This document shows, in pieces, positions 1 through 36,013 of a stretch of DNA of 64,000 nucleotides. The notes below the pieces were generated by a model. That model did not search any database and had not been told where the DNA came from. It saw only the letters and a program-made list of their open reading frames with translations. The translations under genes were made by a program, and so were the position numbers. Every line of letters begins with the position of its first letter. Position 1 is the first letter of the stretch. Source of the DNA: Escherichia coli. GTDB lineage: Bacteria; Pseudomonadota; Gammaproteobacteria; Enterobacterales; Enterobacteriaceae. The stretch lies in NCBI RefSeq assembly GCF_003790525.1, contig NZ_CP033635.1, one strand, 5' to 3'.

Positions 1-2194
1 TACACTGAGCGGTACAAAATCCGGCACCTACCCCGTGACAGTTAGCGTGAACAATTATGGTGTCAGTGATACGAAACAGGTGACTTTGATTGCCGATGCT
101 GGTACCGCAACACTAGCCTCCTTAACCTCTGTATACTCATTCGTCGTCAGCACGACCGAGGGCGCGACCATGACTGCAAGCGTCACTGACGCTAACGGCA
201 ACCCGGTAGAAGGCATAAAAGTTAATTTCCGCGGAACCTCCGTCACGCTAAGCAGCACCAGCGTTGAAACGGATGATCAGGGTTTCGCTGAAATTCTTGT
301 GACAAGCACCGAAGTCGGACTGAAAACAGTTTCAGCCTCTCTGGCAGATAAACCTACTGAAGTCATATCGCGATTACTGAATGCAAAAGCAGATATTAAT
401 TCTGCAACGATTACCAGTCTGGAGATACCTGAAGGTCAGCTAATGGTCGCACAAGACGTAGCAGTTAAAGCTCACGTCAACGACCAGTTTGGCAACCCGA
501 TTCTTAATGAATCTGTAACATTCAGTGCAGAGCCACCAGAGCACATGACCATCAGCCAAAATATTGTCTCTACTGATACGCATGGTATAGCCGAGGTCTC
601 CATGACGCCCGAAAGAAACGGTTCGTATATGGTGAAAGCATCCCTGGCGAATGGAGCCTCACTTGAGAAACAACTGGAGGCTATTGATGAAAAACTGACA
701 CTCACGGCGTCCAGTCCGCTTATCGGTGTCTATGCCCCTACAGGCACTACTCTGACGGCAACGCTAACCTCTGCAAATGGCACTCCAGTGGAGGGTCAGG
801 TCATCAACTTTAGCGTAACGCCAGAAGGGGCGACGTTAAGTGGCGGAAAAGTGAGAACTAACTCTTCAGGTCAGGCTCCGGTCGTTCTGACCAGCAATAA
901 AGTCGGTACATATACGGTGACTGCATCGTTCCATAACGGCGTAACAATACAGACACAGACAACCGTGAAAGTCACTGGCAACTCAAGCACCGCACATGTT
1001 GCTAGCTTTATCGCTGATCCATCGACTATCGCCGCCACCAACAGTGATTTAAGTACCTTAAAGGCAACGGTTGAGGATGGCAGTGGTAACCTGATCGAAG
1101 GTCTCACTGTGTACTTCGCCTTAAAAAGCGGCTCTGCCACATTAACGTCATTAACAGCGGTGACCGATCAAAACGGAATCGCGACAACAAGCGTGAAAGG
1201 AGCGATGACAGGTAGCGTCACGGTAAGCGCAGTCACGACCGCTGGTGGAATGCAAACAGTAGATATAACGCTGGTGGCTGGCCCGGCAGACACCTCGCAG
1301 TCCGTCCTTAAGAGCAATCGGTCATCACTGAAAGGGGACTATACCGATAGTGCTGAATTACGTCTTGTTCTGCACGATATATCAGGCAATCCGATCAAAG
1401 TTTCTGAAGGGATGGAATTTGTGCAATCAGGTACTAACGTGCCCTATATAAAAATTAGCGCAATTGATTACAGTCTAAATATCAACGGTGATTACAAAGC
1501 CACTGTTACAAGCGGCGGAGAGGGTATCGCAACGCTGATCCCTGTATTGAATGGTGTTCATCAAGCTGGTCTGAGTACCACAATACAATTCACTCGCGCA
1601 GAAGACAAAATAATGAGCGGTACAGTATCAGTCAATGGTACTGACCTACCGACAACTACATTCCCTTCGCAGGGGTTCACCGGGGCGTATTATCAGTTGA
1701 ATAATGACAACTTTGCCCCAGGAAAAACGGCGGCTGATTATGAGTTTTCAAGCTCTGCCTCCTGGGTCGATGTTGATGCTACCGGTAAAGTGACATTTAA
1801 AAATGTCGGCAGCAATTGGGAAAGGATTACGGCGACGCCAAAATCAGGAGGCCCTAGCTATGTATACGAAATCCGTGTGAAGAGTTGGTGGGTGAACGCC
1901 GGCGAGGCTTTCATGATATACAGCCTTGCTGAAAATTTTTGCAGCAGCAATGGCTACACGCTCCCCAGAGCAAACTATTTAAACCACAGTAGTTCCCGAG
2001 GCATCGGGTCACTGTACAGTGAATGGGGAGATATGGGGCATTACACGACTGACGCTGGTTTTCAATCAAATATGTATTGGTCATCTAGTCCCGCAAACTC
2101 AAGCGAACAATACGTAGTTTCCCTGGCAACAGGTGATCAAAGCGTATTTGAAAAGCTTGGGTTTGCTTATGCGACATGTTATAAAAACCTGTGA
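1..2194 (+). CDS. yeeJ: 3' part of inverse-autotransporter adhesin (YeeJ-like); reading frame is open from the left window edge; repeated Ig-like (Big) segments and C-terminal lectin-like domain
   Basis: ORF 35..2194 has no upstream stop back to position 2; T/S/V-rich repeated beta-domain composition typical of intimin/invasin-family passengers; synteny with yeeL-shiA-amn. Confidence 0.8.
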   Translation, partial: TLSGTKSGTYPVTVSVNNYGVSDTKQVTLIADAGTATLASLTSVYSFVVSTTEGATMTASVTDANGNPVEGIKVNFRGTSVTLSSTSVETDDQGFAEILVTSTEVGLKTVSASLADKPTEVISRLLNAKADINSATITSLEIPEGQLMVAQDVAVKAHVNDQFGNPILNESVTFSAEPPEHMTISQNIVSTDTHGIAEVSMTPERNGSYMVKASLANGASLEKQLEAIDEKLTLTASSPLIGVYAPTGTTLTATLTSANGTPVEGQVINFSVTPEGATLSGGKVRTNSSGQAPVVLTSNKVGTYTVTASFHNGVTIQTQTTVKVTGNSSTAHVASFIADPSTIAATNSDLSTLKATVEDGSGNLIEGLTVYFALKSGSATLTSLTAVTDQNGIATTSVKGAMTGSVTVSAVTTAGGMQTVDITLVAGPADTSQSVLKSNRSSLKGDYTDSAELRLVLHDISGNPIKVSEGMEFVQSGTNVPYIKISAIDYSLNINGDYKATVTSGGEGIATLIPVLNGVHQAGLSTTIQFTRAEDKIMSGTVSVNGTDLPTTTFPSQGFTGAYYQLNNDNFAPGKTAADYEFSSSASWVDVDATGKVTFKNVGSNWERITATPKSGGPSYVYEIRVKSWWVNAGEAFMIYSLAENFCSSNGYTLPRANYLNHSSSRGIGSLYSEWGDMGHYTTDAGFQSNMYWSSSPANSSEQYVVSLATGDQSVFEKLGFAYATCYKNL

Positions 2195-2455
2195 TTTTCC
2201 GTTATAATTTCTTAAAGAGTGCTCCATTCGGAGCACTCTTTTTTACATTCCCTCTATAGAGCTTGGCCTTCTCTCACAGAAAATGAATAAATAAAACTGC
2301 TGCACCGCAAGAATCGCGTTCGATGTGACTATGATCGTATCCGGTGAGTACAGCTTTGATCCAAAGGCTGGTTTTCTGTGATGATTGACCAGCCTCAGAG
2401 TATTGATGACACCACCGTTCATAACAGATCGGCATTACTATGCATAAGTACTGTC

Positions 2456-3508
2456 TCATATTCTCGCCAAAACACTTTTTAATGCCTTTGCGAATTCATC
2501 CAGACTTATATTGTCAATTTTTTGCCCAACGACGACTGACTCCGAAACATCGGCCATTGCGGGCCATCGCGTTTTGTAATCAGCATAAATTGCAACAACG
2601 GGAGTATTATAGGCACTTGCCATATGTAATATTGAGGTGTCAGGAGTTATTGCGATATAAGCATCTTTTATGATTGCTGCTGAACGTTTAATCGAGGGTG
2701 ATAAGGATAAACGGTAGACATTATTATAACAATCCACTAATACCCTGGCTTTATCTTCCCCTTTTGGTCCATGAACGATCACTATTGGTATATCTGTTTC
2801 ACTTTGAATTTTTGCTATTAGATTTTCTGCAATCGATAATGAAAATGTACGTTCCTGCGAGCTACCTTCTAAATTAAGCGCAATGTAAGATCCTAACGAT
2901 CGCATTTCCTCGCGCACCTCATCGAGTACATCCTCACTTAGTGGCAATTCATATATTGGCCTGACTGCTGGAAAACCCGCCTCACGCATCATAAATGCCC
3001 ATGTCATGGGTACAGGAGCCCGGAGATTCTGATCCATCCGGGACGCGTTCTTGCACAAAGGGGAGTAGCACTTCATGGTTAAACCAACAACCTGAAAATT
3101 CGTTTTTGCTTTCAACTGACTGATAAATATCATCGTTTTCAGGTTCTTTTTACGCATCGCCTCTATACAAAGATCCGGCGTACCGTATTTCTGTGTTATG
3201 TTCTTTGCTAAATCTTTTATTTCTTTTAATGTTGCGTGATCCTGCATAGTCATTGTGACTAATGTTAATTTAGTCTTTTCAAGTTTAAGTGCATTAAACA
3301 CTTCTAAATTAATTGTCGACGTAACAATTAAAAGATGCTTAATTTTATGCAATTCAAGCGCCCGAATAACAGGAAAGATGGCCATAGCATCGCCAATCTG
3401 GTCGGGAATATGGATGACAACAAAGTCTGTTTTTTCAATATTGAAATTATAAGCTTTATAATCGTAGTAACTAAATGCAATACGTCTCAACAATGATGCT
3501 AAAAACAT
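2456..3508 (-). CDS. yeeL: glycosyltransferase family 9 (heptosyltransferase-like) protein, YeeL-like, apparently intact here
   Basis: 350 aa ORF; position between yeeJ and shiA. Confidence 0.7.
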   Translation of the reverse strand: MFLASLLRRIAFSYYDYKAYNFNIEKTDFVVIHIPDQIGDAMAIFPVIRALELHKIKHLLIVTSTINLEVFNALKLEKTKLTLVTMTMQDHATLKEIKDLAKNITQKYGTPDLCIEAMRKKNLKTMIFISQLKAKTNFQVVGLTMKCYSPLCKNASRMDQNLRAPVPMTWAFMMREAGFPAVRPIYELPLSEDVLDEVREEMRSLGSYIALNLEGSSQERTFSLSIAENLIAKIQSETDIPIVIVHGPKGEDKARVLVDCYNNVYRLSLSPSIKRSAAIIKDAYIAITPDTSILHMASAYNTPVVAIYADYKTRWPAMADVSESVVVGQKIDNISLDEFAKALKSVLARI

Positions 3509-3822
3509 ACCTAACCTCGCCTCCCTACTGGTTATAATGCAATGCAGTCTATCAGACTCATCAGGGTGCCATTTTGTGCATATGCGGACTTTTATGTTTC
3601 ATATCTCTAACCTGTGGCTCCTCTGCTTAATCCTTAAACAACACCAGCAACTCCTGCGCTTTCATCTTCCATCGAATTTTTCATGTTGCCGCTAATCAGC
3701 CATAAAATCATTTGCAGATGCGCTCTGTCGAGGTAGTCTCATAAGGTTCGTTTATAGATCGACGGCAATGTGAGTTACCTTTTCCATACTAATTATAAAA
3801 AGACAGTACAAACAGGATCATT

Positions 3823-5139
3823 ATGGACTCCACGCTCATCTCCACTCGTCCCGATGAAGGGACGCTTTCGTTAAGTCGCGCCCGACGAGCTGCGTTAGGC
3901 AGCTTCGCTGGTGCCGTCGTCGACTGGTATGATTTTTTACTCTATGGCATCACCGCCGCACTGGTGTTTAATCGCGAGTTTTTCCCGCAAGTAAGCCCGG
4001 CGATGGGAACGCTCGCCGCATTTGCCACCTTTGGCGTCGGATTCCTTTTCCGTCCGCTCGGCGGTGTCATTTTCGGTCACTTTGGCGACCGACTGGGACG
4101 TAAGCGCATGTTAATGCTGACCGTCTGGATGATGGGCATCGCGACAGCCTTGATTGGTATTCTTCCTTCATTCTCGACCATTGGGTGGTGGGCACCTATT
4201 TTGCTGGTGACACTGCGTGCCATTCAGGGATTTGCCGTCGGCGGCGAATGGGGAGGCGCGGCGTTGCTTTCCGTTGAAAGTGCACCGAAAAATAAAAAAG
4301 CCTTTTACAGTAGCGGTGTACAAGTTGGCTACGGTGTAGGTTTACTGCTTTCAACCGGACTGGTTTCATTGATCAGTATGATGACGACTGACGAACAGTT
4401 TTTAAGCTGGGGCTGGCGCATTCCTTTCCTGTTTAGCATCGTACTGGTACTGGGAGCATTGTGGGTGCGCAATGGCATGGAGGAGTCCGCGGAATTTGAA
4501 CAACAGCAACATTATCAAGCTGCCGCGAAAAAACGCATCCCGGTTATCGAAGCGCTGTTACGACATCCCGGTGCTTTCCTGAAGATTATTGCGCTACGAC
4601 TGTGCGAATTGCTGACGATGTACATCGTTACTGCCTTTGCACTTAATTATTCAACCCAGAATATGGGGTTACCGCGCGAACTTTTCCTCAATATTGGTTT
4701 GCTGGTAGGTGGATTAAGCTGCTTGACAATTCCCTGTTTTGCCTGGCTTGCCGATCGTTTTGGTCGCCGCAGGGTTTATATCACAGGTGCGTTAATCGGA
4801 ACGTTGAGCGCATTTCCTTTCTTTATGGCGCTTGAAGCACAATCTATTTTCTGGATAGTTTTCTTCTCCATAATGCTGGCAAACATTGCGCATGACATGG
4901 TGGTGTGTGTGCAACAACCGATGTTTACCGAAATGTTTGGTGCCAGTTATCGCTATAGTGGTGCTGGAGTCGGTTATCAGGTCGCCAGTGTGGTTGGCGG
5001 TGGATTTACACCTTTTATTGCCGCTGCACTCATCACTTACTTTGCCGGGAACTGGCATAGCGTCGCCATTTATTTGCTGGCTGGATGTCTGATTTCCGCA
5101 ATGACCGCTTTGTTGATGAAAGACAATCAACGCGCTTGA
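3823..5139 (+). CDS. shiA: shikimate transporter, MFS metabolite:H+ symporter family
   Basis: 438 aa ORF with MFS signature (GHFGDRLGRKRML) and 12-TM composition; conserved synteny. Confidence 0.9.
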   Translation: MDSTLISTRPDEGTLSLSRARRAALGSFAGAVVDWYDFLLYGITAALVFNREFFPQVSPAMGTLAAFATFGVGFLFRPLGGVIFGHFGDRLGRKRMLMLTVWMMGIATALIGILPSFSTIGWWAPILLVTLRAIQGFAVGGEWGGAALLSVESAPKNKKAFYSSGVQVGYGVGLLLSTGLVSLISMMTTDEQFLSWGWRIPFLFSIVLVLGALWVRNGMEESAEFEQQQHYQAAAKKRIPVIEALLRHPGAFLKIIALRLCELLTMYIVTAFALNYSTQNMGLPRELFLNIGLLVGGLSCLTIPCFAWLADRFGRRRVYITGALIGTLSAFPFFMALEAQSIFWIVFFSIMLANIAHDMVVCVQQPMFTEMFGASYRYSGAGVGYQVASVVGGGFTPFIAAALITYFAGNWHSVAIYLLAGCLISAMTALLMKDNQRA

Positions 5140-5240
5140 TAGTCTGGCGAAGATCATCCGATCTTCGCCTTACACTTTTGTTTCACATTCCTGTGACATA
5201 CTATCGGATGTGCGGTAATTGTATGGAACAGGAGACACAC

Positions 5241-6695
5241 ATGAATAATAAGGGCTCCGGTCTGACCCCAGCTCAGGCACTGGATAAACTCGACGCGCTG
5301 TATGAGCAATCTGTAGTCGCATTACGCAACGCCATTGGCAACTATATTACAAGTGGCGAATTACCTGATGAAAACGCCCGCAAATAAGGTCTTTTTGTCT
5401 ATCCATCACTGACCGTAACCTGGGACGGTAGCACAACCAATCCCCCCAAAACGCGCGCATTTGGTCGTTTTACTCACGCAGGCAGCTACACCACCACGAT
5501 TACTCGCCCTACTCTCTTTCGTTCGTATCTTAATGAACAACTTACGTTGCTGTATCAGGATTATGGTGCGCATATCTCTGTGCAACCCTCGCAGCATGAA
5601 ATCCCTTATCCTTATGTCATCGATGGCTCTGAATTGACACTTGATCGCTCAATGAGCGCTGGGTTAACTCGCTACTTCCCGACAACAGAACTGGCGCAAA
5701 TTGGCGATGAAACTGCAGACGGCATTTATCATCCAACTGAATTCTCCCCCCTATCGCATTTTGATGCGCGCCGCGTCGATTTTTCCCTCGCACGGTTGCG
5801 CCATTATACCGGTACGCCAGTTGAACATTTTCAGCCGTTCGTCTTGTTTACCAACTACACACGTTATGTGGATGAATTCGTTCGTTGGGGATGCAGCCAG
5901 ATCCTCGATCCTGATAGTCCCTACATTGCCCTTTCTTGTGCTGGCGGGAACTGGATCACCGCCGAAACCGAAGCGCCAGAAGAAGCCATTTCCGACCTTG
6001 CATGGAAAAAACATCAGATGCCAGCATGGCATTTAATTACCGCCGATGGTCAGGGTATTACTCTGGTGAATATTGGCGTGGGACCGTCAAATGCTAAAAC
6101 CATCTGCGATCATCTGGCAGTGCTACGCCCGGATGTCTGGTTGATGATTGGTCACTGTGGCGGATTACGTGAAAGTCAGGCCATTGGCGATTATGTACTT
6201 GCACACGCTTATTTACGCGATGACCACGTTCTTGATGCGGTTCTGCCGCCCGATATTCCTATTCCGAGCATTGCTGAAGTGCAACGTGCGCTTTATGACG
6301 CCACCAAGCTGGTGAGTGGCAGGCCCGGTGAGGAAGTCAAACAGCGGCTACGTACTGGTACTGTGGTAACCACAGATGACAGGAACTGGGAATTACGTTA
6401 CTCAGCTTCTGCACTTCGTTTTAACTTAAGCCGGGCCGTAGCAATTGATATGGAAAGTGCAACCATTGCCGCGCAAGGATATCGTTTCCGCGTGCCATAC
6501 GGGACACTACTGTGTGTTTCAGATAAACCGTTGCATGGCGAGATTAAACTTCCCGGTCAGGCTAACCGTTTTTATGAAGGCGCTATTTCCGAACACCTAC
6601 AAATTGGCATTCGGGCGATCGATTTGCTGCGCGCAGAAGGCGACCGACTGCATTCACGTAAATTACGAACCTTTAATGAGCCGCCGTTCCGATAA
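5241..6695 (+). pseudogene. amn: AMP nucleosidase gene interrupted by a single in-frame TAA at 5385-5387 (codon about 49); remainder of frame is open
   Basis: ORFs 5085..5387 (contains MNNKGSGLTPAQALDKLDALYEQ...) and 5547..6695 are in the same frame; no other stop between 5388 and 5546. Confidence 0.8.
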
Positions 6696-7037
6696 TAAGT
6701 TCTGAACCTTCTTATCAGAAATAGATGTGAAGGATTAAGTAAGACATCTGGCAAATAGCCTGCAATAAACGCGGGCTGTTTGCTTCCTTGGGCAAATGCG
6801 AGTTTCATTATCGTCTTAATGATTTCCGCATATTAAAAGCAAGTATGCTTTAAAAACATAATTATAAAAAATCCCGCCAACAACATTAGTATTTATAAAA
6901 CAAAATATAAGATTATGGCTTTAGAATATTTTTATTTCTAATAGACGAGATTTTTCCTGTTATGATATAATATGCCGAATTAACACATGTTAACGATTTA
7001 CCTGTAATGTAAATAAATTTTCGAGGAGATCATTCCA

Positions 7038-7754
7038 GTGGGACGTAAATGGGCCAATATTGTTGCTAAAAAAACGGCTAAAGACGGTGCAACGTCTAAA
7101 ATTTATGCAAAATTCGGTGTAGAAATCTATGCTGCTGCCAAACAAGGTGAACCTGATCCAGAATTAAACACATCTTTAAAATTCGTTATTGAACGTGCAA
7201 AGCAGGCACAAGTTCCAAAGCACGTTATTGATAAAGCAATTGATAAAGCCAAAGGCGGCGGAGATGAAACGTTCGTGCAGGGACGTTATGAAGGCTTTGG
7301 TCCTAATGGCTCAATGATTATCGCCGAGACATTGACTTCAAATGTTAACCGTACGATTGCTAACGTTCGCACAATTTTCAATAAAAAAGGCGGCAATATC
7401 GGAGCGGCAGGTTCTGTCAGCTATATGTTTGACAATACGGGTGTGATTGTATTTAAGGGGACAGACCCTGACCATATTTTTGAAATTTTACTTGAAGCTG
7501 AAGTTGATGTTCGTGATGTGACTGAAGAAGAAGGTAACATTGTTATTTATACTGAACCTACTGACCTTCATAAAGGAATCGCGGCTCTAAAAGCAGCTGG
7601 AATCACTGAGTTCTCAACAACAGAATTAGAAATGATTGCTCAATCTGAAGTTGAGCTTTCCCCAGAAGATTTAGAAATCTTTGAAGGGCTTGTTGATGCC
7701 CTTGAAGATGACGACGATGTACAAAAAGTTTATCATAACGTCGCAAATCTCTAA
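7038..7754 (+). CDS. yeeN: YebC/PmpR-family probable transcriptional regulator
   Basis: 238 aa ORF with YebC-family N-terminus ([12 protein letters not shown]...). Confidence 0.9.
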
Positions 7755-8104
7755 TTATCTTTTAAAGAAATCTGTCTTTACGGCAGATTTCTTTAATCTC
7801 ATATAACCCTTATAAAAAATATAATGTTCAACTCGTCATATTGATTATAAAAAATCCCCGTTCCCAGAGAAATAATATTTATTAAAATTCCAGTTCTTCT
7901 TTTTCTGATTACAGAAGGCAAAGTGGCAATAACGCATAGTTTCCCGATAAAGACGCGATAGCGACATCCCGCATAAGGCATTTTTCTCTTTATCTTTGTA
8001 CGGTACTTCATGGAACAGAGTTTTTGACCTTGCGAATCGTGATGTCTGTTGGGGGCAACTTGCTCACTGAAGCGTGAGACTCGATTAAGCGCACGAAACA
8101 CAGA

Positions 8105-8160
8105 AATCAAAAAACCCGGTCACTTTTTTACAAGGTAACCGGGTAAAAATAATTTTTATT
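8105..8160. terminator. hairpin (ACCCGGT...ACCGGGT) followed by A/T-rich run between yeeN and asnW; possible bidirectional terminator
   Basis: inverted repeat read directly in sequence. Confidence 0.4.
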
Positions 8161-8205
8161 TTTTAACTGTTTTGAGACTCATAGAGATATCTCAAAACTA
8201 AAATT

Positions 8206-8281
8206 TGGCTCCTCTGACTGGACTCGAACCAGTGACATACGGATTAACAGTCCGCCGTTCTACCGACTGAACTACAGAGGA
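8206..8281 (-). tRNA. asnW: tRNA-Asn (GTT anticodon)
   Basis: 76-nt reverse complement of the tRNA-Asn sequence also present at 10030 and 12439; ends in CCA. Confidence 0.95.
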
Positions 8282-8381
8282 ATCGTGAGAACGAGACGAA
8301 TATTAGCGATGCCCACCCATAATGTCAAAGCCTGTTTTTTAAATTTGAAATCGTTTGCTGAAATAATCTGCATTTTGTCGT

Positions 8382-9869
8382 TTATTCCGACACAGCTGGC
8401 TTTTTTTCACACTTTTGCGGTTCGGATCGAGGGTATTTCCACAGCCAACGTCCAGTAACCATTCGCCAGTAAAACAGCACGGCCCGCACAGCCCAGTCGG
8501 CAAACATTCCCATCCAGACACCAACCACACCCCAGCCAAGCATGATGCCCAGCACATAACCGACGACAACCCGGCAACCCCACATGCTCAACATAGAAAC
8601 CCACATGGCGTAACGGGCATCGCGAGCACCTTTAAATCCAGCGGGTAGCACCCATGAGGCGGACCAAATAGGCATAAATAAAGCATTTAGCCAAATCAGA
8701 ATCACAACGACATGTTTAACCTGTGGATCCTGGGTGTAAAACGATGCCATAACCCCGGCAAAGGGAGCCGTTAGCCAGGCGATGGCCGTTAATCCAAGAG
8801 TGGAAAGCCAGAACACATGCCGCAACTGAATCTCTGCTTGCGCTATCTGCCCTACCCCCAACCTTCGGCCTGTAATGATCGTAGAAGCAGAGCCGAGCGC
8901 ACTTCCGGGTAAGTTGATAAGAGCCGCAATTGAAAACGCGATAAAATTTCCGGCAATAACACTGGTCCCCATCCCGGCAACGAACATTTGGGTTAATAAC
9001 CGACCACTGGTAAATAACACTGATTCGACACTCGCTGGAATACCAATCCCCATGACTTCCCAGATAATGCTAAAATTCAGCGGTTTAAAATAGCTCTTTA
9101 ACGAAATCCTTAGCGCAGGATTAAAACCAATCGCCAGCACCCACAAAATTGCAACTGCGCCAATATAACGAGAAATGGTTAAACCCAACCCAGCCCCGAC
9201 AAATCCCAGTCCCGGCCAGGAGAAAAGGCCGTAAATCAATATGCCGCTAATAATAATATTAAGAATATTCAGGCTACCGTTAATCAGTAGCGGTATTTTC
9301 GTATTCCCTGCACCACGAAGTGCCCCGCTACCAATCAAAGTGATGGCAGCTGCTGGATAACTGAGTGCCGTCAGCTCCAGATAAGTCAACGCCAGTGCTT
9401 TAACTTCTGTCGTGGCATCACCCGCGACGAAATCAATAATTTGTTCGCCAAAATGATGAATAAGCGTTGCCAACAGTACGGCAAACAACGTCATGATCAC
9501 CAATGACTGCCGCGTCGCCACCCTCGCTCGTCGTCGATCCCGCTTACCGAGACTAAATGCCACAACGACAGTAGTACCAAGATCGATAGCAGCAAAAAAA
9601 GCCATAATGACCATATTGAAGCTGTCCGCCAATCCCACGCCGGCCATCGCATCTTTTCCCAGCCAGCTGACCAGAAAAGTGCTCAGGACACCCATCAACA
9701 GGACACAGGCATTCTCCATGAAGATAGGAACAGCAAGCGGGGTTATCTCGCGCCAGAACAACACTTTGTAGCTCTTGCGTTTAGCGTGCCAGCGAGTGCC
9801 GTGAACAACCTGGCGTAAAGCAGAGGAGATATTCAAAGCCGACCTTAATTGCAGAAAGTGAAACCACAT
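8382..9869 (-). CDS. yeeO: MATE-family efflux transporter; start taken at internal Met (MWHFLQLRS...) of the longer ORF 8382..10022
   Basis: multi-TM MATE-like ORF; synteny between asnW and asnU. Confidence 0.85.
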   Translation of the reverse strand: MWFHFLQLRSALNISSALRQVVHGTRWHAKRKSYKVLFWREITPLAVPIFMENACVLLMGVLSTFLVSWLGKDAMAGVGLADSFNMVIMAFFAAIDLGTTVVVAFSLGKRDRRRARVATRQSLVIMTLFAVLLATLIHHFGEQIIDFVAGDATTEVKALALTYLELTALSYPAAAITLIGSGALRGAGNTKIPLLINGSLNILNIIISGILIYGLFSWPGLGFVGAGLGLTISRYIGAVAILWVLAIGFNPALRISLKSYFKPLNFSIIWEVMGIGIPASVESVLFTSGRLLTQMFVAGMGTSVIAGNFIAFSIAALINLPGSALGSASTIITGRRLGVGQIAQAEIQLRHVFWLSTLGLTAIAWLTAPFAGVMASFYTQDPQVKHVVVILIWLNALFMPIWSASWVLPAGFKGARDARYAMWVSMLSMWGCRVVVGYVLGIMLGWGVVGVWMGMFADWAVRAVLFYWRMVTGRWLWKYPRSEPQKCEKKPAVSE

Positions 9870-10029
9870 TTCAAATAATGAGGGAGAATCAGCAAAGCTG
9901 CAAAGATTTTCGCCAACAAATTGTCTGCAAATGCAACAAACTGTTGATAGAAACGGCAAACAGTTGGGGAATTTAAAAATCGGGTTTGACAAAAGATTTT
10001 TCGCCGTTAAGATGTGCCTCAACAGCGAT

Positions 10030-10105
10030 TCCTCTGTAGTTCAGTCGGTAGAACGGCGGACTGTTAATCCGTATGTCACTGGTTCGAGTCCAGTCAGAGG
10101 AGCCA
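10030..10105 (+). tRNA. asnU: tRNA-Asn (GTT)
   Basis: TCCTCTGTAGTTCAGTCGGTAGAACGGCGGACTGTTAATCCGTATGTCACTGGTTCGAGTCCAGTCAGAGGAGCCA. Confidence 0.95.
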
Positions 10106-10114
10106 AATTTCTGA

Positions 10115-10142
10115 AAAGCCCGCTTTTATAGCGGGCTTTTTG
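10115..10142 (+). terminator. rho-independent terminator after asnU (GC hairpin AGCCCGC...GCGGGCT plus T run)
   Basis: hairpin and T tract read in sequence. Confidence 0.7.
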
Positions 10143-11093
10143 CTATATCTGATAATCAATTTCCTCTTCACTGTTTTCCATCACCTGCCGCTTGATATCC
10201 TCAACTGACAGTCCTGCATTACAAAGTTCCAGAAAGCGCCAGACATAGTTACGCTGAAGTTGTCCTCGCTTCAGTCCCAACCAGACAGTATTAGCATCGA
10301 AAAGATGCCGCGTATCCAGACGGATTAAATTCTCTTCCTCTTGTTCGCCGCTGGATTGTTCGGCAACTAATCCGATCCCAAGCCCAAGAGCAACATAGGT
10401 TTTAATGACATCAGAATCCTGCGCACTTAATACAATATCTGCCAGCAAACCTTTGCGGGCAAATGCGTCATCAATACGTGAGCGCCCCGTAATCCCCTGT
10501 CGGTAAGTGATTAACGGCCACTTCGCTATTGATTCCAGCGTCAATGGTGAAATTTGCGTCAAGGGATGATCGTGTGGAACAAGCAAACTATGGTGCCAAC
10601 GAAACCACGGGAAGGCGACGAGCTGCGGGTCATTACTCAAACGCTCGCTGGCGATACCAATATCAGCTTCGCCATTTTGCAACAATGTCGCAATTTCCTG
10701 TGGCGTCCCCTGGATTAGCCCGAGCCGAACCTCCGGGAAAAGTTCGCGAAAAGCTTTAATGACCTCTGGCAAGCTATAACGTGCCTGAGTATGCGTCGTT
10801 GCAATAGTGAGAACGCCAGACGTATCGTTGGTAAACAGGTCTGCAAGCCGACGAACATTACTGGCTTCATTCAGAATACGTTCTGCAATGACCAGTAATG
10901 CTTTGCCCGGTTCAGTCATGCCCAGCAGTCGCTTACCTCGTCGAACAAATATTTCGATGCCAAGTTCATCCTCCAGTTCCCGAATATGACGGCTGACGCC
11001 TGACTGTGAGGTAAAAAGCATATTCGCAACCTCTGTCAGGTTGTAATCCTGACGTGCAGCCTCGCGGATTATCTTTAGTTGTTGGAAATTCAC
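10143..11093 (-). CDS. cbl: LysR-family regulator Cbl
   Basis: 316 aa ORF with N-terminal LysR HTH; conserved position next to nac. Confidence 0.9.
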   Translation of the reverse strand: MNFQQLKIIREAARQDYNLTEVANMLFTSQSGVSRHIRELEDELGIEIFVRRGKRLLGMTEPGKALLVIAERILNEASNVRRLADLFTNDTSGVLTIATTHTQARYSLPEVIKAFRELFPEVRLGLIQGTPQEIATLLQNGEADIGIASERLSNDPQLVAFPWFRWHHSLLVPHDHPLTQISPLTLESIAKWPLITYRQGITGRSRIDDAFARKGLLADIVLSAQDSDVIKTYVALGLGIGLVAEQSSGEQEEENLIRLDTRHLFDANTVWLGLKRGQLQRNYVWRFLELCNAGLSVEDIKRQVMENSEEEIDYQI

Positions 11094-11194
11094 GGTAAAC
11101 TCCGGGCAGTTCAGATTTCCCGTTATTGTTAAAGTCTAATGCCCGGCATAACAAATAATAAAAACCCGCATCTTATTCCATTCCGATATAACAC

Positions 11195-33747: not shown

Positions 33748-35148
33748 TTATTGTTCGAACTTCGGAGCAATCAGATTATCCAGATTGAATGTCTTCTCCC
33801 ATTCTTCCTGTGTGAGTAGCTTACGTTCGACAACCACTATCTGATGGAGGGATTTGCCTGTATGGTATGCTTCGTGCGCCATTTCAGAACACACCTTATA
33901 TCCCAGATGTGGCTTCAGGAGAGTCACAATACCGCAGGAATGCATTACCATCTCTGCAGTTCGATCGGAATTAGCTGTAATGCCATCAATGCATTTAGTT
34001 CGGAGTGTGTTACAGGCATTCGTCATCACCTTGAGTGAGGTGAACAGCGCAAAGGTGATGACCGGCTCCATAACGTTAAGCTCAAGCTGACCAGCAGATG
34101 CCGCCAGCATCACTGTGGTGTCCAGCCCCTGAACCAGGAAGCAAGACTGGTTTGTTACTTCCGGGATAACGGGGTTAACCTTACCAGGCATAATGGAAGA
34201 ACCCGGTTGCAATTGAGGCAGGTTAATTTCAGCCAGGCCGCAACGGGGGCCTGAAGCAAGCAGTCGAATGTCATTACAAACCTTGGTAAGCTTCACAGAG
34301 AGGCTCTTCATGGCCGAACTGAGTGCAACATATGCACCACAGTCGCTTGTGGCAGCGATGAGATCTTCACTGTTCCTGAAATTAATGCCTGTGATCTGGG
34401 CCAGATATTTCACGGCTAAAGCGGGATAATCCGGGTGAGCGGTAACACAGGTACCAATCGCAGTAGCACCAAGGTTTACAACCCGCAGGTGTTCCTGTGC
34501 ATTACGGATGACCCGAATTTCATCATTAATTGTAAAACCCCAGCCATGGAACTCCTGGCCGAGAGTCATTGGCACTGCATCCTGCAGGTGAGTACGTCCC
34601 ATCTTGAGCACTGTGCTGAACTCGTCAGCCTTTTTGTAGAATGCTCCTACGAGGTGTTCAACAGCTTCAAGCAATACATTGCTTCGCAGCAGCAATGCCA
34701 GATGTAATGCTGTCGGATATGTATCATTGGTGGACTGACCAAAATTAGCATGGTCGTTTGGCGAAACGCGTTTGTAATCCCCTTTAACGCTACCAAGTTT
34801 TTCTGCAGCAAGATTACAAATCACTTCATTGCAGTTCATATTGGTTGACGTTCCGGCTCCCCCCTGAAGCCAGTCGGTCACAAACTGTTCCCGGTACTTA
34901 CCATCAATTAATTGGTCGCAAGCCCAGATTAAAGCATCCGCAACATCAGCAGGAATTGTACCTAACTCCTTATTAGCCATCGCAGCTGCTTTTTTCACAT
35001 AACCGAAGGCAATGATGAAGAAGGGCTCCTGACTCATTGGCATTTCAGTAATATGGAAATTATCCTCACCACGAAGTGTCTGAACACCATAATAGCAATC
35101 ATCCGGAACTTCACGCTCACCAAGGAAATCGCTTTCAATACGAGACAT
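33748..35148 (-). CDS. aspartate ammonia-lyase-family enzyme (AspA paralog), copy 1
   Basis: 466 aa ORF with fumarate-lyase signature GSSIMPGKVNPV; gene order lyase then Dcu transporter mirrors aspA-dcuA. Confidence 0.85.
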   Translation of the reverse strand: MSRIESDFLGEREVPDDCYYGVQTLRGEDNFHITEMPMSQEPFFIIAFGYVKKAAAMANKELGTIPADVADALIWACDQLIDGKYREQFVTDWLQGGAGTSTNMNCNEVICNLAAEKLGSVKGDYKRVSPNDHANFGQSTNDTYPTALHLALLLRSNVLLEAVEHLVGAFYKKADEFSTVLKMGRTHLQDAVPMTLGQEFHGWGFTINDEIRVIRNAQEHLRVVNLGATAIGTCVTAHPDYPALAVKYLAQITGINFRNSEDLIAATSDCGAYVALSSAMKSLSVKLTKVCNDIRLLASGPRCGLAEINLPQLQPGSSIMPGKVNPVIPEVTNQSCFLVQGLDTTVMLAASAGQLELNVMEPVITFALFTSLKVMTNACNTLRTKCIDGITANSDRTAEMVMHSCGIVTLLKPHLGYKVCSEMAHEAYHTGKSLHQIVVVERKLLTQEEWEKTFNLDNLIAPKFEQ

Positions 35149-36013
35149 AATTTTCTAACTCCATTTTTCGAAAACAATGTGACAATAACAAATTGTTTTC
35201 ATAAAACACTTATCCAACATTAAGAATGAATACTTATAATCACCAGATGACATAACCATTACCATCTAATGGAATATATTTAAACTAATAAGATAAACTT
35301 AAAACGTGATATCAAGCACATTTTTATAACGTTAAAATTAGTGGGTTATTTAGCAATCAAATATAACCAGTAAAAGCCCGAAATATGCAGATAACGCTGC
35401 ACTAATATGATTAAGATCAAAAAAAACAATTCCGCAATCAAACTTATTATTAATGCTGATTTTTTAAATCATGATTAAGTAGAACTATTTTATAATAGCA
35501 TCCCGGTTTGGTCACATCCTTCAGAAAAACAACCTGTTTACCACCATAGAAAATCTATATCTCTGCTAGGTTTTCCAGCGTTGTAGATATAGTCACTCAT
35601 GGTGATTCTTATTAAGATAAGAGTTTTTACACGGGAATGTTATTGCACTTCTAATTGATAAATCTTGGAATAGAGTAGAAAACGTAATGTTTCCACTCCA
35701 TCTTCCGCTTTAATGGTTTGTAATTTGAGTTAGATCATGGATTTTAACATCCATTATGATTAATTATTTTTAGATGATTTGATCACTAAATCGTCTTTCA
35801 GGGTGTAACGGCATTAATCATCACAAGCTAAAAAAACGCCATACTGTAATGGAGTCTGTATTTTATGTTCAATCATGCAAAGGCTCTTCATAATTATCAT
35901 TTCTCTCTTGGAAAAATGACAGCCTGAACATAGCATAAATTCACGTTCTTCAGAGTCAGAAGGTGTTAATAAACTGTCCCTAAAATCTGGAAAATGTTGA
36001 AGAAGGCATCTCA

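Follow-up and report, generated by a model that had tools for sequence, protein, structure and literature searches.

Does the amn gene in the 64,000-nucleotide stretch of Escherichia coli DNA analysed here (the window) still encode AMP nucleosidase, or has a single base substitution near its 5′ end recently silenced it? The question arises from an ochre codon in an otherwise open frame, and the answer depends on whether the gene is correctly identified, whether the codon is derived and real, whether any enzyme could still be made, and whether the loss reflects drift or selection.

The amn locus and its interruption

On the plus strand, the amn frame runs from ATG 5241 to its natural TAA at 6693–6695, and according to the translation (...PDENARK*GLFVYPSL...) its sole interruption is TAA 5385–5387, codon 49. 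The sequence-only reading had described a frame open throughout except for this codon, and both its coordinates and its reading are exact; the truncation that it placed at about 48 residues falls after exactly 48. The features on which the following argument relies are these.

5241–6695, plus strand: amn (AMP nucleosidase), read as a pseudogene/null allele; 484 codons and a stop, with one interruption
5385–5387, plus strand: ochre TAA at codon 49; T5385 is derived, the ancestral codon CAA (Gln), the following base G
5241–5387, plus strand: residual ORF of 48 residues and a stop, spanning just the first third of AMNp_N, the N-terminal domain
5230–5234, plus strand: native Shine–Dalgarno (SD) sequence AGGAG, intact, 6 nt upstream of ATG 5241
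5181–5198, plus strand: Pho box TTTCACATTCCTGTGACA, intact, upstream of amn; one mismatch relative to the K-12 PhoB site TTTCACATTTCTGTGACA
5547–6695, plus strand: longest in-frame ORF after the stop, from TTG at codon 103, 382 aa, without an RBS; this is what a gene caller would report

With Gln49 restored, the translation is 100% identical over 484 residues to the E. coli AMP nucleosidase of PDB 1t8r, and it scores 836.8 bits against NCBIfam TIGR01717 (cut-off 364.7) and 826.7 bits against NF006142 (cut-off 307), while the residual 48-aa peptide reaches 29.7 bits against TIGR01717, far below the cut-off. The order shiA (3823–5139), amn, yeeN (7038–7754) is found in the window, RefSeq places amn (WP_001060244.1, 484 aa) at the equivalent position in the collinear genome of 13KWH46, and the synteny is also seen in 702/18 and SMS-3-5. 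The family score and the shiA–amn–yeeN synteny together support the identification of the gene as amn, made earlier from the letters alone.

According to Pfam, the regulatory domain AMNp_N (PF10423) covers Amn residues 12–167 (E = 4e-51) and the catalytic domain PNP_UDP_1 (PF01048) residues 266–431 (E = 3e-21); the stop thus lies about 217 codons upstream of the catalytic domain. The sequence-only reading had allowed that reference Amn proteins might start downstream of the stop. This objection fails, as ATG 5241 is the start of both WP_001060244.1 and the crystallised protein, and AMNp_N begins at residue 12.

Compared with E. coli Amn (EC 3.2.2.4; PDB 1t8r/1t8s/1t8w/1t8y; WP_001060244.1; TIGR01717), the window has the same locus, start codon, RBS, and Pho box, together with 483 of the 484 codons of the crystallised protein, and its nucleotides match the intact alleles of the closest strains; it differs at codon 49, with TAA for CAA, and only a 48-residue peptide is possible from the native start. 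An uninterrupted 484-residue frame is therefore lacking, and because TAA at codon 49 breaks the frame, we interpret the window amn as a pseudogene or null allele of the AMP nucleosidase family rather than a functional member. In K-12, a PhoB ChIP-seq site at amn and PhoB-dependent amn expression have been reported, amn being a member of the Pho regulon (PMC10294691).

Ancestral base and age of the change

Over positions 5141–6795 (1,655 bp), the alignment of the window with E. coli 13KWH46 contains a single difference, T in the window and C in 13KWH46 at 5385; the base is C in 702/18 and SMS-3-5 as well. Since all three strains carry C, the reference codon 49 is taken to be CAA (Gln49), as the sequence-only reading had supposed, and the one-base C-to-T change proposed earlier is indeed the sole difference from 13KWH46. 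The lesion is best regarded as a homology-anchored single-base change and not as a chance ORF feature. The remainder of amn matches intact alleles base for base, with no further stops, frameshifts, or excess substitutions in the 1,655 bp, in agreement with the earlier remark that the gene shows no further decay.

Queried with the same 1,655 bp, 5,412 of the 5,426 complete E. coli genomes gave matches, the top ones all being one mismatch off. For the base itself, we used 55-mer probes in which the variable base occupies position 28 and is thereby part of any 28-base megablast seed. The C-version matched 5,317 of the 5,426 complete genomes, and the T-version none. The suggestion that the lesion is recent is borne out by these counts and by a sister assembly, considered below, that shares a private nac substitution with the window and still has CAA.

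Between the window and a divergent phylogroup-A-like background, amn shows ten synonymous and no nonsynonymous differences. Because the protein is identical across backgrounds despite the ten synonymous differences, amn appears to be normally under purifying selection, and this makes the stop look like a fresh departure.

Across the full 64 kb, six positions separate the window from SMS-3-5 and eight separate it from 702/18; private to the window relative to both are 2266, 5385, 11285, and a 1-nt deletion at 27524. The three private substitutions all lie within the first 11.3 kb. At 2266, a singleton C-to-G change lies in intergenic DNA where yeeJ, with its stop, and a family-9 glycosyltransferase gene, with its 3′ end, converge; in a search with a positive control, none of the 5,426 complete E. 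coli genomes had it. At 11285, within nac (11195–12112, minus strand), the plus-strand change T-to-G turns TTA into TTC, i.e., Leu276Phe in the nitrogen assimilation regulator Nac; this variant is found in none of the 5,426 complete E. coli genomes, and the 55-mer with the reference base matches 4,241 of them. The nac substitution is common to GCA_003686615.1, GCA_034460245.1, and Logan runs SRR25608274 and SRR25608277.

The exact-product look-up with the window Nac protein (L276F) matched four contigs, of which two allow the lesion to be dated. The draft contig RDDW01000016.1 (GCA_003686615.1) matches window positions 1195–20455 (about 19.3 kb) with 100% identity, T5385 included, and no Amn product is called on it; the allele is already present in this public assembly. 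The sister contig DASMRJ010000004.1 (GCA_034460245.1) shares nac L276F, yet it has C5385, C2266, and an intact amn of 484 aa. Both draft contigs stop near window position 20.5 kb (RDDW01000016.1 at 20455), and the window runs on to 64 kb; as it outruns the GCA_003686615.1 contig, it is a different assembly of the same clone. Because GCA_034460245.1 carries nac L276F but keeps CAA, the amn nonsense mutation appears to sit on a terminal branch, after the nac change. The change at 2266, likewise absent from GCA_034460245.1, would therefore have arisen on the same terminal branch.

Drift, selection, error, and residual activity

We give a probability of about 0.85 to the reading that the window carries a recent, real C-to-T null allele of amn in an SMS-3-5/702-18-like clone, its loss reflecting neutral or mildly deleterious drift. 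In the proposed sequence of events, a very recent C-to-T transition on the terminal branch of this clone would have converted codon 49 from CAA (Gln) to TAA (ochre). Ribosomes loading at the intact RBS and ATG (5230–5243) would then stop after 48 residues, within AMNp_N, and AMP nucleosidase would not be made, leaving a null allele and a nascent pseudogene. The expected phenotype would be loss of the Pho-inducible breakdown of AMP to adenine and ribose-5-phosphate, and a somewhat larger adenylate/ATP pool. Most likely, the loss would be neutral or mildly deleterious drift that selection has yet to purge.

An alternative view of the cause is that amn inactivation was positively selected in the window clone, e.g., for a larger adenylate/ATP pool in starvation or cold. 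The gene is dispensable though near-universal (kept in 5,412 of the 5,426 complete genomes). Its dispensability follows from a 1-bp insertion (frameshift) in amn that was fixed in a long-term stationary-phase evolution lineage (PMC7858067), and from the viability of an amn knock-out, for which the relevant passage of PMC3042610, citing Morrison & Shain 2008, gives about 30% higher ATP and better cold tolerance. Both observations could be taken in favour of selected loss, and so could the recurrence of the same lesion elsewhere.

Ten places were listed in the exact look-up of the 48-aa peptide. Nine are wild-type contigs that end at 5384–5386 with C at 5385, and the only true Q49* carrier among the ten listed matches is the Logan contig ERR15950935_191741 (L016). 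This contig differs from the window at 50 substituted sites, plus indels, in 5.8 kb, and from the nearest complete genome, WCHEC020031, by two differences, namely, the C-to-T change of Q49* and an A-to-C substitution located 33 nt ahead of the ATG. Because L016 differs widely from the window and by two bases from WCHEC020031, Q49* appears to have arisen independently in an unrelated, phylogroup-A-like E. coli background. The private A-to-C change (L016 position 2813, corresponding to window 5208) falls in the amn promoter/5′ UTR, between the Pho box and the start codon, and both private changes in the 5.8 kb are located in the amn 5′ region.

Other N-terminal lesions have also been recorded. 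The public collection contains the 382-aa product in 457 blocks, where it results from varied lesions (IS1-associated truncation, frameshifts), and this again would suit selected loss; however, many of these calls stem from error-rich assemblies in which neighbouring genes are fragmented too. One set of truncations is found in the GenBank CP078557–CP078592 series (L006, L008, L009, L011–L014), near-identical 4.73-Mb chromosomes in which a 5′-truncated amn, giving the 382-aa call, directly follows IS1 fragments and mtfA (Peptidase_M90) lies next to them; this arrangement implies an IS1-associated deletion of the yeeJ–shiA–amn 5′ region. Like the window allele, other amn loss alleles (IS1-associated 5′ truncations, frameshifts, the stationary-phase 1-bp insertion, engineered knock-outs) disrupt this dispensable gene in its N-terminal part, and the 382-aa C-terminal ORF is what gene callers then report. 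In contrast to them, the window allele is a single clean nonsense substitution without other damage, and Q49* is known from the window clone and one independent run, among the matches listed.

The retention of amn in nearly all complete genomes and the ratio of ten synonymous to zero nonsynonymous differences argue against selection for its loss. The JGI metagenome contigs, scanned with a 35-mer carrying T, gave no matches and hence no further copy of the allele; the exact look-up of the 100-aa upstream-extended ORF (5085–5387) likewise returned no record. By our estimate, two events at one C-to-T site of a dispensable gene are expected by chance, given the hundreds of thousands of sequenced E. 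coli. Positive selection in the window clone thus seems unlikely, and it is similarly improbable that natural E. coli loses amn adaptively time and again.

The drift reading also presupposes that T5385 is real. Were the isolate truly CAA, the T would be a consensus miscall from sequencing or assembly. Consistent with such an error, T is a singleton against the 5,426 complete genomes, the window has two more singleton substitutions (2266 and 11285) within 9 kb, and the assembly of the window and GCA_003686615.1 may share an isolate or reads and so are perhaps not independent. Yet the same T is present in GCA_003686615.1, a different assembly that shows no difference from the window over 19.3 kb, and this second occurrence in the clone makes a random consensus error less likely. 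The nac L276F singleton is confirmed in three further independent datasets, which indicates that the private SNPs of the window are real variation. In addition, the site, CGCAAACAAGG, lies outside homopolymers and Dam/Dcm motifs, and the identical change is seen in an unrelated sample (Logan ERR15950935). We therefore consider a miscall quite unlikely.

Finally, an active enzyme could persist in spite of the stop, either by ochre suppression or read-through at TAA-G, or by internal reinitiation yielding a truncated, unregulated enzyme with the catalytic domain. The 382 codons downstream of TTG 5547 are intact, and relatives consisting of the catalytic domain alone do exist in nature, e.g., the 268-aa "AMP nucleosidase" of PDB 1ybf and the families TIGR01721 and NF005500. 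These match Amn residues about 267–470 (1ybf is aligned to 267–467), a region intact downstream of the stop in the window. However, they are separate genes with their own starts, whereas the window amn has no start codon or RBS at the domain boundary, and its restart codons fall inside the N-terminal domain, so that the products would begin in the middle of AMNp_N.

The search for a restart codon with an RBS, suggested by the sequence-only reading, was carried out by listing all in-frame ATG, GTG, and TTG codons after the stop and computing their SD energies. The first four are TTG 5547 (codon 103), GTG 5580, TTG 5634, and ATG 5652, the first being 160 nt past the stop. The SD:anti-SD duplex has an energy of −7.4 kcal/mol at the native start, against +0.6 to −2.8 kcal/mol at these four codons (+0.4 at TTG 5547), the background of SD pairing inside the gene being −1.5 ± 2.2 kcal/mol (mean). 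No RBS-led restart in frame exceeds this background before codon 276, and an internal restart with an RBS was rejected on the strength of this background-level SD pairing. The 382-aa ORF from TTG 5547 is probably not made.

As for suppression, no suppressor tRNA gene was found in the 64-kb window, whose tRNA genes are three tRNA-Asn(GTT) only. In E. coli, a TAA with G as the next base terminates efficiently, and TAA is neither the Sec nor the Pyl codon. Programmed recoding or read-through was rejected, as the stop is conserved in no relative: neither any of the 5,426 complete genomes nor GCA_034460245.1 has it. Persistence of an active enzyme is accordingly very unlikely, and the window amn allele is most likely null, judging from its sequence. 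An origin by cytosine base editing was dismissed, since inspection of the sequence by eye revealed no NGG PAM at the required distance downstream of C5385.

Inside amn, positions 5761–5789 (plus strand) contain a terminator-like hairpin followed by a T-run (TTGATGCGCGCCGCGTCGA TTTTTCCCTC), about 375 nt 3′ of the premature stop; this is a consensus match only. The hairpin would normally be translated through, and it would lie in untranslated mRNA in the window allele. Downstream, yeeN is separated from amn by about 340 bp and has its own promoter-like site at 6942–6971; because of this gap and this site, a polar effect on yeeN is not expected.

Surroundings of the locus and significance of the allele

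The fourth private difference, at 27524, lies in a gene for a DcuA/DcuB-family transporter (about 26300–27615, minus strand), where a C-run has five bases, compared with six in SMS-3-5 and 702/18. The deletion shifts the reading frame about 30 codons into the gene, and a 452-aa ORF begins at an out-of-frame ATG further upstream. Since 19 public contigs, GCA_045574105.1 and GCA_052953255.1 among them, have exactly this 452-aa product as a call, the deletion is a shared polymorphism rather than an error of the window.

Two further regions were noted in the window. Positions 21995–22334 (minus strand) contain fragments of ClbP (precolibactin peptidase) and a thioesterase, according to the RefSeq annotation of the collinear genomes of 702/18 and SMS-3-5; they seem to be what is left of a pks (colibactin) island at its 3′ end. 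Their neighbours are ibrA/ibrB-like genes and a TonB-dependent receptor gene with a frameshift, in the region that follows the tRNA-Asn genes. Positions 33748–35198 and 62785–64000 are inverted copies, about 99.3% identical (the aspartate ammonia-lyase paralogue region), flanking about 28 kb of DNA rich in IS elements and with numerous pseudogenes. SMS-3-5 departs from the window after 63914, owing to an IS3 insertion in the distal inverted copy.

The amn gene, non-essential and well characterised, has here become a nonsense pseudogene of an ordinary kind and very young age. In annotation, amn of the window clone should be flagged as a pseudogene interrupted by an internal stop, no protein should be called from the 382-aa ORF, and the AMP nucleosidase reaction should be left out of metabolic models for the strain. 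If recurrent loss of amn were adaptive after all, it could point to selection against Pho-induced AMP degradation, enlarging the adenylate/ATP pool in starvation or cold. The recurrence of Q49* provides a small data point for surveys of loss-of-function homoplasy in E. coli. Of little import beyond annotation, the window amn is nevertheless a clean, datable case of a conserved core gene beginning to decay.
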